A stretch of DNA of 48,689 nucleotides from Clostridia bacterium (GTDB taxonomy: Bacteria > Bacillota > Clostridia > Oscillospirales > CAG-272): the NCBI GenBank assembly GCA_017398145.1, contig JAFQHD010000214.1, positions 1-48,689 of the forward strand, given 5' to 3'. How positions within the stretch are numbered: the stretch's first letter is position 1; every line of letters begins with the position of its first letter. Under the pieces are notes generated by a model. The model saw only the letters and a program-made list of their open reading frames with translations, was not told the DNA's origin and ran no database searches. A program made the position numbers and the translations under genes. Of this stretch, positions 2,886 through 25,837 are shown piece by piece.

Positions 2886-3818
2886 ATGAGTTTTATTTCT
2901 ACAATCATCACCTCAGGTTCTACATACCTCGACATAGACGCCTATGCCTGCAGTATAGCTCTGGCTGAGCTGCTGAGGCTCAAGGGCGTAGATGCCGTAG
3001 CATATTCGGATGCCCCCTGCAATTACAGCGTGTGCCCCTCCCTTGTGTCAGAGGGTCAGCTTACTGTGTCCCTGCCGGAGGAGCTTATAAATAAAGCCGA
3101 ATACATAATAGTCGACGTGTCCGACCCCGATTATCTGAAGGATAACGTTCCCCTTGCCAATATCGTTGAGGTCTATGACCACCACGTAGGCTTTGAGGAA
3201 TACTGGGCAAGCCGTATAGGAGAAGGGGCGCGTATCGAGTTTATCGGCGCGGCGGCAACTCTTATATACCGCGAGTGGAAAAAGGCGGGACTTGAGGACA
3301 AGATGTCAGAGCATACCGCTGAGCTTCTGGTGGCGGCTATACTTGACAATACCCTTAATCTCACGTCCTCCAACACAACAGCCGAGGATATTGAGGTTTT
3401 CGAGACTCTGTGTAAAAAAGCAGGTATCGGAGAAGAGTGGTGTGACGCATATTTCTCCGAGGTTCAGAAAAGCGTCGAGGCGGATCTGAAAAACGCGTTG
3501 TTCAACGATCTTAAGAGGATCACGGATAATAAGATATTACCGCCCCGTATGGCACAGCTGTGTGTATGGGATGCAGAGAGTATAATAAAAAAGCTGCCTG
3601 AGATAAGGCTGTACTTTGACGGTAAGGACAACTGGTTGATGAACATTATAGATATAAAACACCGTTGCAGTTATTTTGTATCTGACAATTCGGTTTGTCA
3701 GGCAGGACTCGAAGATATTTTCGGTATCCGTTTTGAATCGGGTGTTGCAAGATCACCGGTTCCTTATCTACGTAAAGAGATTATAAAACATATAATTTCA
3801 AAAAATATTGGAGGTTGA
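2886..3818 (+). CDS. DHH/DHHA2 phosphoesterase, divergent family II inorganic pyrophosphatase (PpaC)-like
   Basis: 310 aa, the same length as PpaC. Motifs appear in PpaC order: LDIDAY, IIVDVSD, VYDHH, ILDNTLNLTSS (compare ISDTLLLKSP) and a C-terminal YLRKE. Several metal/PPi residues are replaced. Confidence 0.65.
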   Translation: MSFISTIITSGSTYLDIDAYACSIALAELLRLKGVDAVAYSDAPCNYSVCPSLVSEGQLTVSLPEELINKAEYIIVDVSDPDYLKDNVPLANIVEVYDHHVGFEEYWASRIGEGARIEFIGAAATLIYREWKKAGLEDKMSEHTAELLVAAILDNTLNLTSSNTTAEDIEVFETLCKKAGIGEEWCDAYFSEVQKSVEADLKNALFNDLKRITDNKILPPRMAQLCVWDAESIIKKLPEIRLYFDGKDNWLMNIIDIKHRCSYFVSDNSVCQAGLEDIFGIRFESGVARSPVPYLRKEIIKHIISKNIGG

Positions 3819-3822
3819 AACT

Positions 3823-4374
3823 ATGGTAGAATTAGGATTCATTCATGGCAGATTTCAACTGTTTCACAATGATCACCTGAACTACGCTCTGCTCGCAAAG
3901 GAGCAGTGCAAAAAGCTCATCGTGGGAATAACATCCCCTGAGAACTCGACGCTTATTCGTGAAGATATAGATCCTCACAGAAGCGAAGCTGCATCAAACC
4001 CCTTTACCTATTATGAAAGATTTAATATGGTAAAGCTCGCCCTTTTGGAGGCTGGAATTCCGAGAGAGGATTTTGAGATAACTTCTTATCCTATCGAGCG
4101 TCCTGAGATACTGTATAACTATGTACCTCTCCACGCTACATCCTTCTTCACTATCTATGATGATTGGGGCTATGAAAAGCTTCACAGATTGGGAGAGCTG
4201 GGATACGGTACCCATGTACTTTTCGATAAGAGAGAGAAAGCAATGTGCTCTACCGAGATCAGACAGAAGATCGTAGACGGTGTTGACTGGAGCGATATGG
4301 TACCCAAGGCGGTATATGACTACATCGTTGAAAATAACTTGACAGATAAAGTAATCAAATTATTACAGAAGTAA
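3823..4374 (+). CDS. cytidylyl/adenylyltransferase-family nucleotidyltransferase (NMNAT/NadM-like HxGH fold)
   Basis: N-terminal GFIHGRFQLFHNDH corresponds to the GRFQPFHxGH signature. GGAGG RBS sits 8 nt upstream of the ATG at 3823. The ORF track start at 3808 lacks an RBS. Confidence 0.7.
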   Translation: MVELGFIHGRFQLFHNDHLNYALLAKEQCKKLIVGITSPENSTLIREDIDPHRSEAASNPFTYYERFNMVKLALLEAGIPREDFEITSYPIERPEILYNYVPLHATSFFTIYDDWGYEKLHRLGELGYGTHVLFDKREKAMCSTEIRQKIVDGVDWSDMVPKAVYDYIVENNLTDKVIKLLQK

Positions 4375-4392: not shown

Positions 4393-5127
4393 ATGAATTT
4401 TGATGTAAACAGCATTCCTGTATCAGAGAGAGTTCATATCACCAAGAATCTTCTCAGATGGGGAATAGATATTGACCAGTACACAGGTAAGATCGACTAT
4501 ATTGAGGGTACCAAGCCTCTCGAGGTGAGAGCTGCATCCATCCACCTTATCCGTCACGCTGAAACTATGGCGGTTGCAAAGCACGAGTTTATGAGCGACA
4601 CATCCGATAACTGCGGCTTTACCGAAAACGGCGAGGCTATCACCCATAAGCAGGCAACAGAGCTCGATCCTTATGATTTTGACGTAGCTCTCTACGGCCC
4701 TATCCCCAGAGTTGTACATACCAAGGAGATCATCATGTCCCATCCTCAGAAGTTTGAGGCTTTCAAGGTACATAAGCTCCACGGTATCGATAACACCGGC
4801 TGGGAATACAAGTCCTTTGAGGAGATCCATCAGACCCCCACATTTATCGCCCGTGAGTTAGAGAACAATATGTTCGCAAGAACAAAGAGCGGTACTTCCT
4901 GGGGTATGGTAATTGCTAACTGCGTTGATGTTATGGACTATATCAACGAAAATTACGCAGGCAAGAAGATACTTCTTATGAGCCAGGGTAGTGTGCTCCG
5001 TGCATTCGAGATACTGCTGCGAAAGAGAAAGCATCCCTGGGATGACTTTACCGTTGAGGGTATGTATCACGTTGGTGATGACACAAACAAGAAGAAGAAT
5101 TACGGTATCATAAGCAAGATCTATTGA
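4393..5127 (+). CDS. histidine phosphatase superfamily (phosphoglycerate-mutase-like) protein
   Basis: LIRHAET matches the RHG/RHAE motif. The region that normally carries the second catalytic His reads MSQGSVLRAF (Q instead of H). Confidence 0.65.
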   Translation: MNFDVNSIPVSERVHITKNLLRWGIDIDQYTGKIDYIEGTKPLEVRAASIHLIRHAETMAVAKHEFMSDTSDNCGFTENGEAITHKQATELDPYDFDVALYGPIPRVVHTKEIIMSHPQKFEAFKVHKLHGIDNTGWEYKSFEEIHQTPTFIARELENNMFARTKSGTSWGMVIANCVDVMDYINENYAGKKILLMSQGSVLRAFEILLRKRKHPWDDFTVEGMYHVGDDTNKKKNYGIISKIY

Positions 5128-22553: not shown

Positions 22554-23528
22554 ATGCCCTTTGAAAAATTTGACAGAAGCAAGCTGAATATTCTCCCCTT
22601 GAACGAGAGAATACACGACGTAGACCTTTCTCAGGTCTATAAAGATCCCGCCACCCATATCCCCGATTTTGAAAACAAAAATCTCCCCACCATAGCCAAG
22701 GCTGTCTGGGAGGCGAGAAGAAAATACGACGCTACCGTTCTTATGATGTACGGCGCACACGTTATCCGTACCGGTAACGCAGGCTATATGATAGAGCTGA
22801 TGAAAAAAGGCTTTGTCACCCACTTTGCCACCAACGGCGCAGGCTCTATCCACGATTTTGAGCTTGCTATGATAGGTCATACCTGTGAGAGCGTTGCAAA
22901 GTATATCTCCGAGGGACAGTTCGGTCTCTGGCAGGAGACCGGCATCATAAACGATATCATAAAAGAGGGCGCAAAGGATACTCTCGGCTGGGGCGAGGCT
23001 ATCGGCAGATATATCTGGGAAAACAACTTCCCCTACCGTGAGCAAAGCGTTCTTGCCATGGGATATCACTTAGGAGTTCCCTGTACCGTGCATATCGGTA
23101 TCGGTAACGATATCATCCACGAGCATCCCAACTGCGACGGCGCTGCTATGGGTATATGCTCCTATAACGATTTCCTTATCTACGCCCAGAGCGTGACCAA
23201 GCTGGAGAAAGGAGCTTTCCTTAACTTCGGTTCTGCGGTCGCAGGCCCCGAGGTATATCTGAAGGCTCTTGCTATGGCAAGAAACGTTGCCCATCAGAAC
23301 GGCGAGAAGATAACCGACTTTACCACGGCGGTGTTCGACCTTCTTGAAATAGACGAGGACGCGGATCACTCCTCTGCTCCTCCCAAGAGCGACCCCCGTT
23401 ACTATTTCAGACCTTGGAAGACCATTCTTGCAAGAACTGTTGCCGACGGCGGACAGAGCTTCTACATTAAGGGCGAGCATCAGAAGACAGTGCCGGCACT
23501 TGCTAAGCTGGTTTTAGAAATGAATTGA
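22554..23528 (+). CDS. uncharacterised 324-aa protein; weak by-eye resemblance to deoxyhypusine-synthase-like NAD-binding fold
   Basis: Translationally coupled (2-nt gap) to the SIS-HAD gene. VLMMYGAHVIRTGNAGYMIELMKKGFVTHFATNGAGSIHDFELA has the same pattern as the DHS segment ...SSGLR.II..L.K...VD.IVTT.GGIEED. This is a weak, by-eye comparison. Confidence 0.35.
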   Translation: MPFEKFDRSKLNILPLNERIHDVDLSQVYKDPATHIPDFENKNLPTIAKAVWEARRKYDATVLMMYGAHVIRTGNAGYMIELMKKGFVTHFATNGAGSIHDFELAMIGHTCESVAKYISEGQFGLWQETGIINDIIKEGAKDTLGWGEAIGRYIWENNFPYREQSVLAMGYHLGVPCTVHIGIGNDIIHEHPNCDGAAMGICSYNDFLIYAQSVTKLEKGAFLNFGSAVAGPEVYLKALAMARNVAHQNGEKITDFTTAVFDLLEIDEDADHSSAPPKSDPRYYFRPWKTILARTVADGGQSFYIKGEHQKTVPALAKLVLEMN

Positions 23529-23753
23529 CACTGTAGGTGTCATGAATTATCTTCGATATGAATTGTGCCGAAGGCACATGAATTGAAAGCCAATGGCTTT
23601 CATTAAGGAGGATTTTTGCTAAGGCAAAAATCAATTATGATTAAATACTTTTTGCCCAAAGGCCAAAAGTTACCTTAATGCATCGAAGATGCAATTCATG
23701 GCAAAGCCAATTCATGACCGAAGGTCAATTCATGTGCCTGCGGCACAATTCAT
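23520..23753. repeat. 234-nt dyad-symmetric element: 4x ATGAATT + ATTAAGG mirrored by CCTTAAT + 4x AATTCAT, interleaved with ten local hairpins
   Basis: ATGAATT at 23520, 23542, 23558 and 23578. ATTAAGG at 23602. CCTTAAT at 23673. AATTCAT at 23693, 23709, 23727 and 23747. Hairpins at 23526-42, 23548-58, 23564-78, 23584-602, 23611-32, 23647-70, 23680-92, 23699-709, 23715-27 and 23733-47. Confidence 0.85.
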
Positions 23754-23769
23754 TCCAAAGGAGTTTACT

Positions 23770-24795
23770 ATGGATTTAAATAGAATCATCGACCGTCTCG
23801 GTCACATAAAAGAAAAAAAGATCCTTGTTTTAGGCGATTACTGCCTTGACAAGTACGTATATTCGGATCCCGCAGAGGACGATGTTTCTCTTGAAACGGG
23901 AGTTGCAGCGTGGCAGATATACGGTAAAAAGATGGCTGCAGGTGCTGCAGGCACTATCACCAACAACCTTCGCGCTCTCGGTGCAGAGGTCATCTGCGTA
24001 GGTATCGTAGGTGATGACGGAGAGGGCTATGACCTGCTCAAGTGCTTAAAGCAGATCGGTGCTGACACCCGTTATATCATGGTAAGTGAGGAGATCACCA
24101 CCGCTACTTATCTTAAGAATATGCGTAAGCAGTCTGACGGTGAGTACCGTGAGGACACCCGACTTGATTTCCGTAACCGTTCTATCACAAGCGAATCTAT
24201 GTTTGAGGAGCTTGGATGTAACTTTGAAGAAGCGGTAAAGGAGGCTGACGGTATCATTGTATCCGATCAGTTCTTTGAAAGAAACTCGGGTGTCGTAGGC
24301 GATATTCTCCGTAAAAAGATAAACGAATTTGCAAAAAAATACGATAAACCCTTCCTCGTTGACTCCCGCGCTTTTGCCCGTGAGTATAAGGGAATGTATA
24401 TCAAGTGTAATAACTATGAGCTTATGAAATACTGCGGCGCCAAGGGCGATCCCGAATGTATGGAGGACGTGCTGCGCGGCGGTATGGAGATGAAAAACGA
24501 GGTCGGTCACTCAATATTTATTACCTGCAACAAGGACGGAATCAAGATCTTTGAGGATGAGATAAGCCATGTTCCCACATATCCCGTAGAGGGTGAAATA
24601 GACGTAACGGGTGCGGGAGATGCTTCTAACGCGGGTATCGTGCTTTCTTTGGCTCTCGGTCTTACTCCCACGGAGGCTGCGGCTGTAGCCTGCTGTGTTT
24701 CCTCTATCACCATTCAGCAGTTAGGTACCACGGGTACCGCTACGGTTGAGGGTGTTATAGAAAGACTTTATACTATTGACAAAATGATGAAATAA
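23770..24795 (+). CDS. PfkB/ribokinase-family sugar(-phosphate) kinase, HldE/RfaE kinase-domain-like
   Basis: AAGGAG RBS before the ATG at 23770. KILVLGDYCLDKYVY resembles the RfaE domain I start. DVTGAGDA is the PfkB signature 2. Confidence 0.75.
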   Translation: MDLNRIIDRLGHIKEKKILVLGDYCLDKYVYSDPAEDDVSLETGVAAWQIYGKKMAAGAAGTITNNLRALGAEVICVGIVGDDGEGYDLLKCLKQIGADTRYIMVSEEITTATYLKNMRKQSDGEYREDTRLDFRNRSITSESMFEELGCNFEEAVKEADGIIVSDQFFERNSGVVGDILRKKINEFAKKYDKPFLVDSRAFAREYKGMYIKCNNYELMKYCGAKGDPECMEDVLRGGMEMKNEVGHSIFITCNKDGIKIFEDEISHVPTYPVEGEIDVTGAGDASNAGIVLSLALGLTPTEAAAVACCVSSITIQQLGTTGTATVEGVIERLYTIDKMMK

Positions 24796-24805
24796 GGTGA
24801 AAGAT

Positions 24806-25837
24806 ATGTCAAAAAAACTGAGAATGGCAATAATAGGCTGCGGCGGTATCGCTTGCGGCGCTCATGCTTCAAACTATGATAATATAGACGATATAGAGAT
24901 CGTTGCGGTATGCGACATCAAGCCCGAGCGTATGGAGCTTATCAAGTCAAAATATAAGAGCTGTGCCGGTGCTTGGACGACCGAGGATTATATGGATATC
25001 GTCAACTGTCCCGATATTGATGCAGTTGATATCTGTACTCCCAACTACCTCCACGCACCTATAGCTATTGCCGCATTAAACGCAGGTTAGCACGTGCTTA
25101 CCGAAAAACCTGATGCTATGACCGTATCCGAGGTTGAAGCAATGAAGGAAGCCTCCGAGAAAAACGGCAAAGTCCTTATGGCTATGCGTAACAATCGCTT
25201 TACCCCGGCGGCTATATATGCAAGAAAAGCTATTGCCAATGATGAATACGGCAGATTTTATGCAGGACGCTGCGGATGGATACGCAGACGCGGTGTTCCG
25301 GGTGACGGCTCCTGGTTTGCAGATAAGTCAAAGTCGGGCGGCGGACCTCTTATAGATCTCGGCGTTAATATTATCGACCTTGCTATATTCCTTATGGGAA
25401 GCCCCAAGCCCGTGTCTGTCTCCGGCTCTACCTTCCGTGAGATAGCGGGCAAGAACGAAAAGGGCGGTCTTTTCGACGTAGAAGATCTGGCAATGGGCTT
25501 TATTAAGTTCGATAACGGAGCCTGCCTGCATATAGATTTCAGCTGGGCAACCAATATTGAAAAAGACACAAGATTTGTTGAGCTTCGCGGTACCAAGGCA
25601 GGTATCAAGATAGAAAACGACGAGCTGTCCGTTTACGGTGAAAAGTACGGCGTACAGTATGACGAAAAGCCCCGTCCCCGCGGAGAGTACGGTCACTGTG
25701 TGGCTATCCGCCACTTTGCCGATGTCGTGCTCAACGGTACAGATCCTGTTTTCGTTCCTCAGCAGGGCGTTGATATGATAAAGATACTTAATGCTATCTA
25801 CGAGTCTGCCGAAACGGGCAAGGAAGTTTTGCTTTAG
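24806..25837 (+). pseudogene. Gfo/Idh/MocA-family NAD(P) oxidoreductase interrupted by one in-frame TAG
   Basis: MAIIGCGGIACGAH Rossmann start. ...AALNAG-TAG(25088-25090)-HVLTEKP, where the family consensus is AGKHVLCEKP. The frame is otherwise continuous across ORFs 24797-25090 and 25094-25837. Confidence 0.75.

Follow-up and report, generated by a model that had tools for sequence, protein, structure and literature searches.

The 48,689-nucleotide contig JAFQHD010000214.1 of a Clostridia bacterium (assembly GCA_017398145.1; Oscillospirales, CAG-272), analyzed here over its whole length and called the window, contains a gene cluster in which a 241-nt gap separates an upstream gene from the start codon of a PfkB kinase gene at 23770. 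The neighboring genes are involved in sugar metabolism, SpoIIE is also among the flanking genes, and the closest named PfkB homologues come from Clostridia metagenome-assembled genomes (MAGs). The gap is filled by an array of 7-nt linkers alternating with small hairpins, followed by an inverted array of the same kind, and as it lies inside a co-directional gene cluster the element is part of the operon mRNA. We propose that it is probably one copy of a palindromic, modular repeat family dispersed in gut and rumen Clostridia (MAGs of the Oscillospirales type), that it was recently inserted here and that it incidentally forms a block in the mRNA resembling that of repetitive extragenic palindromes (REP). 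The parts of the element are the following (h, hairpin; labels such as L001 or L005 used below denote loci or contigs compared with the window).

23520 to 23584: forward array, four copies of ATGAATT (at 23520, 23542, 23558 and 23578) with hairpins h1 (23527-41), h2 (23549-57) and h3 (23565-77)
23558 to 23585, plus strand: 5' arm (linker-h3-linker) of a register-shifted long duplex, pairing with 23726-23753
23585 to 23601: hairpin h4, GAAAGCCA-A-TGGCTTTC, pairing probability 1.0
23601 to 23680: center of the element, an 8-bp inverted repeat CATTAAGG (23601-08) / CCTTAATG (23673-80) around two AT-rich hairpins, h5 (23611-32) and h6 (23647-70)
23680 to 23753: reverse array, hairpins h7 (23680-92), h8 (23700-08), h9 (23716-26) and h10 (23734-46), each followed by AATTCAT (at 23693, 23709, 23727 and 23747)
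23726 to 23753, plus strand: 3' arm (linker-h10-linker) of the long duplex
23754 to 23772, plus strand: mini-hairpin-like TCCAAAGGA with the Shine-Dalgarno sequence AAGGAG, the PfkB ATG being at 23770

An earlier first-pass annotation, made from the sequence alone, had described the linker copies, their mirrored, nested order and an inner pair (ATTAAGG at 23602 and CCTTAAT at 23673, contained in the inner repeat), all of which we recover at the same positions. The length of the gap and the overlap of the first linker with the upstream gene, whose stop codon TGA (23526-28) it provides, are likewise as described, and the linker is indeed the conserved part and the hairpin the variable one. All 10 intervals between linkers are self-complementary, as the annotation had it, but the stems are of 3-10 bp and not 4-10 bp, because h2 and h8 have only 3 bp. 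Eight of the 12 copies of ATGAATT/AATTCAT in the 48.7-kb window sit in the element, and the last of them ends 16 nt ahead of the PfkB start codon. The terminal inverted repeat of 9-11 bp (AATGAATTG / CAATTCATT) is merely the outermost linker pair. Hairpins h3 and h10 have a common stem (GTGCC/GGCAC); but for one change, h10 is h3 reverse-complemented. The element is found base for base in three further, independent metagenome assemblies (L001-L003), which excludes an assembly artefact.

A detector of arrays (three or more copies of any 6-mer, spaced by hairpins) returned these two arrays alone in the window and none in 100 shuffles. The gap is also as highly structured as the annotation stated, with fold z-scores of -9.0 (plus strand) and -9.9 (minus strand) for RNA and -10.6 for single-stranded DNA. 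The fold that had been proposed for it, five stacked 7-bp helices separated by four-way junctions, fares poorly: in a nearest-neighbor model the nested five-rung ladder reaches -68.9 kcal/mol compared with -98.0 kcal/mol for the minimum free energy (MFE) structure, the four outer ATGAATT/AATTCAT rungs have an ensemble probability of about 0, and ATTAAGG/CCTTAAT is the sole rung predicted to form (p ~0.95). The MFE folds of both RNA and DNA use a 28-nt register-shifted duplex (23558-85 with 23726-53), which lies within a 36-nt arm pair that is 89% complementary and is possible because of the near-perfect reverse complementarity of h3 and h10. Nearest-neighbor models handle perfect four-way junctions crudely; in these predictions the five-rung ladder is only one among several possible registers and not the favored fold. 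Hairpin h5, with its AT-rich stem and interrupted T tail, was flagged as weakly terminator-like by a simple scan, and the region has 8 terminator-like sites compared with 4.4 +/- 1.9 expected, which is no clear enrichment. No terminator was found upstream of the array, and no tRNA in the window.

The annotation had known of no described family with this layout. At the Rfam gathering threshold (50 bits) nothing is indeed detected in the window, but under E-value thresholds both halves of the element match Gut-1 (RF01706) over the full length of the model, the plus strand at 23518-23589 (24.7 bits, E=0.0085) and the minus strand at 23704-23782 (23.0 bits). Gut-1 was defined as three hairpins separated by (G)UGAAAU linkers, from 43 representatives in human gut metagenomes, and was considered not to be cis-regulatory, with no function given (Weinberg 2010, Genome Biol 11:R31, PMC2864571). 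A literature search found this paper as the sole one naming Gut-1 or RF01706, and the family has stood in Rfam since 2010 as a three-hairpin orphan motif known from metagenomes only. Each half of the window element has four linkers and three hairpins, as Gut-1 requires (at least three hairpins and (G/A)UGAAAU-type linkers), and one position of its AUGAAUU linker departs from the consensus. The scores of canonical copies are 50-80 bits and those of other ATGAATT-type arrays at most 38 bits; the elements at the equivalent junction in two PfkB relatives, L006 and L008, score 44.3 and 45.6 bits and thereby bridge the window copy and the canonical members. The published model comprises just three hairpins of one array; however, the flanks of its seed sequences in the published raw alignment (e.g., BAAZ01000095.1) run on into a mirrored half, GUGAUAU-hairpin followed by AUAUCAC-hairpin repeats, so the ladder layout is already present in published data, outside the Rfam model.

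Judged by these matches, the window element is a divergent, below-threshold variant of a Gut-1-type family that Rfam covers only in part. It shares with Gut-1 the variable hairpins split by a conserved 7-nt linker and the occurrence in gut Clostridia and gut metagenomes, and differs in its linker (AUGAAUU rather than GUGAAAU), in scores below the 50-bit cut-off, in a long, AT-rich center with two hairpins, and in its location between protein-coding genes, whereas canonical Gut-1 follows a tRNA and a terminator. That canonical context (a tRNA or rRNA operon and a terminator on the 5' side) is found neither at the window copy nor generally in the subfamily with the ATGAATT linker.

A scan for the canonical pattern (GTGAAAT-N9-17-GTGAAAT-N20-50-ATTTCAC) in one genome per species gave at least 120 matches. 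The great majority of those listed belong to Clostridia MAGs from gut or rumen (Oscillospiraceae, Acutalibacteraceae, Ruminococcus and Christensenellaceae), and several MAGs have matches on more than one contig; the host range of Gut-1 was originally human gut metagenomes only, and the window, by its SpoIIE gene and its PfkB homologues, agrees with a host among gut-associated Clostridia. The canonical element starts with an intrinsic terminator hairpin, followed by CA-ACGAAAT with h1 and about three times by GTGAAAT with a short hairpin; then come a center that repeats the 3' arm of h1 just ahead of ATTTCAT and three to four longer hairpins, each with ATTTCAC. In L394 and L398 the second half matches Gut-1 too, on the opposite strand. 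For about 60% of the canonical elements listed, the upstream neighbor is 5S/23S rRNA or, at a distance of 30-90 nt, a tRNA with any anticodon; the other statistics on context rest on crude stop-to-stop open reading frames (ORFs) and are too noisy to use. In one subfamily (L364, L396, L397 and L454) the 5' hairpin GCGCAGTGCCCTTAAGGACACTGCGC replaces the U-tract terminator, and a conserved block of ~60 nt (TATCTGCATTTGTG...AAATGCAGTGCTTGCAAAGAAAAGAGGAC) stands directly 3' of the ladder.

Pairs of canonical copies within one genome (L373, L381 and L454) are ~98-99% identical from the A-tract of the terminator to just past the last linker, with sharp borders and unrelated flanks, the second copy not being beside a tRNA. 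Near-identical copies with unrelated flanks within a genome indicate the behavior of a dispersed repeat, and for 26 of 139 elements the end of the locus is no more than 120 nt away, as expected of repeats that break assemblies. Neither target-site duplications nor flanking direct repeats were seen in the window or in the same-genome copies. The canonical and window elements gave no blastn match to plasmid and phage records, and the matches listed in three pattern scans of viral contigs are tandem-repeat or AT-rich noise. One IMG/VR contig (L075, 1413-1905) has nine consecutive matches to a TGAAAT-array pattern across ~500 nt, which may be a Gut-1-like array or an ordinary tandem repeat.

The linker and architecture of the window copy recur in metagenomes. 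A scan for three occurrences of CAATTCAT gave 120 listed matches, of which ~75% are noise and about 30 are genuine ATGAATT arrays or ladders. The center of these elements has the form X'-AATTC-AATTCAT. Some are arranged forward-then-reverse, others reverse-then-forward (L500, L557 and L586), and many are single arrays, including forward-only arrays just upstream of a ribosome-binding site (RBS) and start codon (L534, L543 and L602), as in L006. All are intergenic; the flanking genes are co-directional in 10 cases and convergent in 6, and no element has a tRNA beside it. Units of 23-27 nt from the window (CAATTCAT-GACCGAAGGTC-AATTCAT, AATTCAT-GGCAAAGCC-AATTCAT and GCATCGAAGATGC-AATTCAT) recur exactly in the unrelated contigs L536, L541, L544 and L546, and with one mismatch in L554 and L575. 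From the sequences compared, the window copy typifies a sister subfamily outside the reach of the Rfam model. Linkers are identical within one element and define the subfamilies GTGAAAT, ATGAATT, ATGAAAT and GTGATAT. Some ATGAATT ladders hold a full intrinsic terminator or a long insert between their arrays (L578, about 3620-3665; center of L518), and the metagenome contig L576 has fifteen tandem copies of AATTCAT with an almost invariant hairpin GGACTCGTGGAGTC, a homogeneous 21-nt repeat unlike the other, heterogeneous arrays.

To trace the history of the window copy, orthologous loci were retrieved through homologues of PfkB; the junctions between PfkB and its upstream neighbor are as follows.

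L005 (PfkB 95% identical): one ATGAAAT, then three or four ATTTCAT-hairpin units
L006 and L007 (PfkB 89%): four (A/G)TGAAAT-hairpin units, closed by a single ATTTCAT
L008 (PfkB 89%, the same PfkB as in L006): another upstream gene, AzlD, with the breakpoint inside the array
L009 (PfkB 87%): 1-nt gap, element absent
L010 (PfkB 86%): 19-nt gap, element absent
L480, L482 and L483 (PfkB 70-72%): gaps of 2-9 nt, element absent

As no more than 1-19 nt lie between the genes in relatives with 70-87% PfkB identity, the two were tightly coupled in the ancestral state and the element is an insertion. The junction holds a full ladder in the window, a reverse half-array in L005 and a forward half-array in L006, while the h4 stem recurs in the L006 element and CCTTAAT or TTAAGG is found in the elements of L005, L006 and L008. 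In L005 the equivalent Shine-Dalgarno sequence is in a unit-like hairpin (TTCC-GAA-GGAA) right behind the last linker, and the empty sites of L009 and L010 end in the linker-like ATGAATAA or ATGAAAAT. On this sequence comparison, the window copy is a recent, lineage-specific insertion in a shallow clade and has been grossly rearranged within that clade. The loci L008 (2159-2260) and L006 (2379-2480) carry the same PfkB allele behind different upstream genes (AzlC/AzlD and a SIS/HAD operon, respectively); their arrays are identical in the 3' part and different in the 5' part, which places the rearrangement breakpoint inside the hairpin array.

These junctions bear directly on a reading that follows the first-pass annotation, which had taken the position inside an operon to suggest RNA processing or stability control, discoordinate expression or a protein-binding array. 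In this reading the element would be a conserved regulator of the operon, in the form of a dedicated cis-regulatory RNA selected for transcript processing or stability or for the ratio of upstream to downstream expression. The location inside a co-directional gene cluster and the extremely stable fold would fit such a role, as would the Shine-Dalgarno sequence right behind the last linker, which partly pairs with 23551-57 in some alternative registers, and the forward-only arrays just ahead of an RBS and start codon in L006, L534, L543 and L602. Yet loci with 70-87% PfkB identity lack the element, only 1-19 nt separating their genes; of the closest three lineages, one has a full ladder, another a half-array in sense and the third a half-array in antisense orientation; identical units occur in many unrelated intergenic settings; and the G:U signature of selection at the RNA level is absent from both sets of hairpins described below. 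Lack of conservation at orthologous loci is the outcome that the annotation itself had named as reducing the element to a local curiosity, and we consider a dedicated operon regulator unlikely.

The family is built from a unit of ~16-25 nt, a perfectly Watson-Crick mini-hairpin plus a 7-nt linker, repeated in tandem. The loop is G(N)NA on the strand with the reverse-type linker (AATTCAT in the ATGAATT subfamily, ATTTCAC in classical Gut-1). In canonical elements the loops of forward arrays are mostly TTC, TGC and TTGC (also TCC and TGAC), and those of reverse arrays mostly GAA, GCA, GTAA and GCAA (also GGA and GTCA); in the ATGAATT subfamily, forward arrays have 23 T..C loops and 1 G..A loop, and reverse arrays 34 G..A and no T..C loops. 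This strand rule implies that one oriented unit builds the family and that a ladder is two inverted arrays. Complementarity between the arms then follows automatically and is no evidence for pairing of the rungs, which are dispensable since single arrays are frequent; the mirrored linkers are no sign of a designed ladder, since many family members are arrays without a partner. Two hairpins of the window break the loop rule, each being the reverse complement of the other: h3, in the forward array, has a GAA loop, and h10, in the reverse array, has TGC. The two L381 copies (about 4262-4296 and about 4977-5011) differ by a flipped terminator loop (GCACTTGC-TTAC-GCAAGTGC compared with GCACTTGC-GTAA-GCAAGT(T)C). 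Together, these cases suggest inversion of loops at the DNA level. Slippage is indicated by adjacent duplicated units in L543 and L547.

Structured RNAs usually tolerate G:U far more than A:C. We tallied base pairs in two independent sets of distinct hairpins:

Canonical set: 1,334 Watson-Crick, 14 G:T, 15 A:C, 37 other
ATGAATT set: 435 Watson-Crick, 4 G:T, 3 A:C, 7 other

Pooled, there are 18 G:T and 18 A:C in about 1,770 pairs (~1% each), with no excess of G:U. As G:T and A:C are equally rare, complementarity is maintained on both strands, and selection for pairing appears to act on both strands and not on one RNA.

An RNA-level role has also to be considered for the family as a whole, namely that Gut-1 elements, including the window copy, are structured non-coding RNAs in which the ladder or a related multi-junction fold is functional, for example as a scaffold or in binding a protein. 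Pairing is kept throughout hundreds of distinct stems, and the loops of reverse arrays include the GNRA types GTAA, GCAA and GAAA, such loops being stable in RNA. In an alignment of 30 canonical ladders (MAFFT/RNAalifold), in which the short forward hairpins aligned poorly, the long-range helix described further below and two reverse hairpins were recovered, and for some canonical copies, such as L383, the ladder is the MFE structure. On the other hand, equal counts of G:T and A:C are not what such a role predicts, RNA folding does not demand loops of reverse-complement types in the two halves, rungs are impossible in single arrays, and RNA hairpins under selection are not typically perfect palindromes of odd length with loops of 3 nt. 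Canonical copies, moreover, directly follow an intrinsic terminator, which leaves no space for a promoter, and are expected to be transcribed little. A functional RNA of this kind seems improbable to us.

The canonical copies point to a possible protein partner. We clustered ORFs within 2.5 kb of ~130 element loci and built a hidden Markov model (HMM) from the one recurrent small protein, present in 17 loci; the HMM finds it in ~21 canonical loci and not in the window. It is an Avd-like four-helix-bundle protein (PF05635/TIGR02436, "23S rRNA intervening-sequence protein"), whose gene directly follows ~20% of canonical ladders. In 16 loci (L363, L370, L375, L377, L379, L380, L413, L420, L421, L422, L424, L436, L451, L453, L457 and L460) it starts 15-76 nt past the last ATTTCAC in the same orientation, with a -35 box abutting the ladder. 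The upstream tRNAs differ (Gly, Ser, Gln, Cys, Arg and Leu), so the association is not simple synteny. The protein has no match among PADLOC defense models, and a second ladder downstream of the four-helix-bundle genes, in the style of REP elements flanking a REP-associated tyrosine transposase (RAYT), is not generally present. The classical type thus gains a described order: tRNA, terminator, array, promoter and often an Avd-like four-helix-bundle gene.

Could the ladders be DNA targets of a protein, such as a regulator, a nucleoid protein or a recombinase that reads the 7-nt linker, with the hairpins as spacers or extrudable elements? The identity of linkers within an element and their division into subfamilies would suit such a reader, as would the -35/-10 promoter that abuts the last linker of many canonical copies and the position of at least 16 canonical ladders 15-76 nt upstream of the TIGR02436/PF05635 gene. 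The window copy, in contrast, is followed by no promoter (16 nt remain to the start codon) and the window has no PF05635 gene, the ATGAATT subfamily is mostly 3' or intercistronic, no candidate binding protein was identified, and palindromes of 9-17 nt are unlikely to extrude from duplex DNA. We regard a protein-binding array as highly improbable.

Alternatively, the units could be mobile as single-stranded nucleic acid and be added at linker-like targets by a putative enzyme (HUH-like, or acting with the Avd-like four-helix-bundle protein). The strand-specific rule for units would agree with this, and loops of the types C-GNA-G and C-GNNA-G are said, after work of Hirao and Yoshizawa in the 1990s, to give very stable mini-hairpins in single-stranded DNA. 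Unrelated arrays share identical units, adjacent units are duplicated in L543 and L547, the relatives' empty sites end in ATGAATAA or ATGAAAAT, and same-genome copies are sharply bordered. In the vicinity of the elements, however, neither a transposase nor a HUH gene turned up, the commonest recurrent neighbor being a small, non-enzymatic helix bundle; the variable stems speak against sequence-specific recognition of the hairpins, no target-site duplications were seen, and slippage with gene conversion would give the same patterns without a dedicated enzyme. Enzymatic mobility of units seems improbable to us.

A broader conjecture, which we hold to be speculative and on balance unlikely, is that Gut-1-type ladders are the cis half of an unrecognized protein-repeat system, as REP is with RAYT. 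The units would be read as single-stranded DNA or RNA, possibly by the TIGR02436/PF05635 protein as the trans factor, the linkers would define cognate subfamilies, and the machinery would add, copy or exchange units. If true, the abundant but little-studied gut Oscillospirales would have a counterpart of REP and BOX together with a testable protein partner.

We return to the reading that we favor, a dispersed palindromic repeat inserted into the operon, against which several observations weigh. Weinberg et al. graded Gut-1 as likely RNA (PMC2864571), as does Rfam, and the canonical copies have a covarying long-range helix (GAAAT-X / X'-ATTTC; RNAalifold) that competes with h1. All 33 oriented canonical elements with an adjacent upstream tRNA are co-oriented with it (tRNA, terminator, forward array), and their last linker often abuts a -35 box, many copies adjoining a -35/-10 promoter; such a fixed position and orientation hints at a function or at a targeted mechanism of insertion. 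The loop strand rule shows some strand-specific selection or mechanism, since neutral palindromes in double-stranded DNA would not keep it. Finally, no transposase, target-site duplication or other mechanism of mobility was found in the surveyed surroundings of the ~130 element loci.

According to the favored reading, the arrays would change at the DNA level, by duplication or slippage of units, exchange of units between copies, and correction that preserves the palindromes. In the window, the last unit-like mini-hairpin appears to carry the Shine-Dalgarno sequence of PfkB. The element would be co-transcribed with the operon and is predicted to fold into a very stable branched structure (~-98 kcal/mol), which would abolish translational coupling between the upstream genes and PfkB and, by analogy with intercistronic REP, would stop 3' exonucleases; the long duplex may in addition give a double-strand RNase a site. 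This effect on the mRNA is most likely incidental and not selected. For the operon, a recent insertion would have separated two genes of a heptose-type sugar pathway that had been translationally coupled, and their relative expression may have shifted as a result. For Gut-1, the picture that emerges is of a dispersed modular repeat with inverted arrays, a strand rule for loops, linker-defined subfamilies and a pairing constraint on both strands.

The REP sequences and bacterial interspersed mosaic elements (BIMEs) of enterobacteria are multi-copy intergenic palindromes, often in alternating orientation, 3' or intercistronic and variable between strains. REP RNA shields upstream mRNA from 3' exonucleases and makes expression within an operon unequal. 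In REP/BIME the palindrome is conserved and the linkers vary, whereas here a 7-nt linker is conserved and the stems vary; the window element lacks the conserved, imperfect palindrome of ~20-40 nt with a 5' tetranucleotide, the hairpins are far shorter (9-17 nt) and the hosts belong to another clade. We know of no RAYT-type transposase for this family, and no recurrent transposase-like family was present in the ORFs within 2.5 kb of the ~130 loci. Pneumococcal BOX (boxA-boxB(n)-boxC), Bacillus cereus bcr1 and miniature inverted-repeat transposable elements are likewise short, dispersed, structured, variable in the number of modules and transcribed inside operons, but the family described here has no conserved terminal modules, no target-site duplications were seen in the window or in same-genome copies, and its modules are of ~20 nt rather than 45-60 nt or more. 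A short conserved repeat alternating with variable segments is also seen in clustered regularly interspaced short palindromic repeats (CRISPR) and in the Neisseria intergenic mosaic elements (NIME) with dRS3. Here, in contrast, the repeat has only 7 nt, different loci have spacers in common, all of them self-complementary 9-17-mers, cas genes are lacking and the arrays form inverted pairs; a CRISPR array has repeats of 23-50 nt, unique non-palindromic spacers and cas genes, which are not what the window element shows.

Several other identities were considered and rejected. Anatomy and neighboring genes speak against CRISPR, an integron attC site and a type III toxin-antitoxin RNA; an internal terminator was set aside on the same grounds. 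A Rex operator (TTGTGAA-N4-TTCACAA) composed of GTGAAAT and ATTTCAC was discarded, as its two halves never lie side by side and elements of the ATGAATT subfamily do not conform to it.

Elsewhere in the window, the gene for a GFO/IDH/MocA oxidoreductase (24797-25837) has an in-frame TAG at 25088-25090, where the otherwise identical contig L001 has AAG. The TAG replaces the Lys of a conserved AGKHV..EKP motif and is one of three things: a nonsense mutation, a sign of a pseudogene or a base error of the assembly. The segment 6001-8000 has a low GC content, 0.35 compared with about 0.42-0.50 in the rest of the window.

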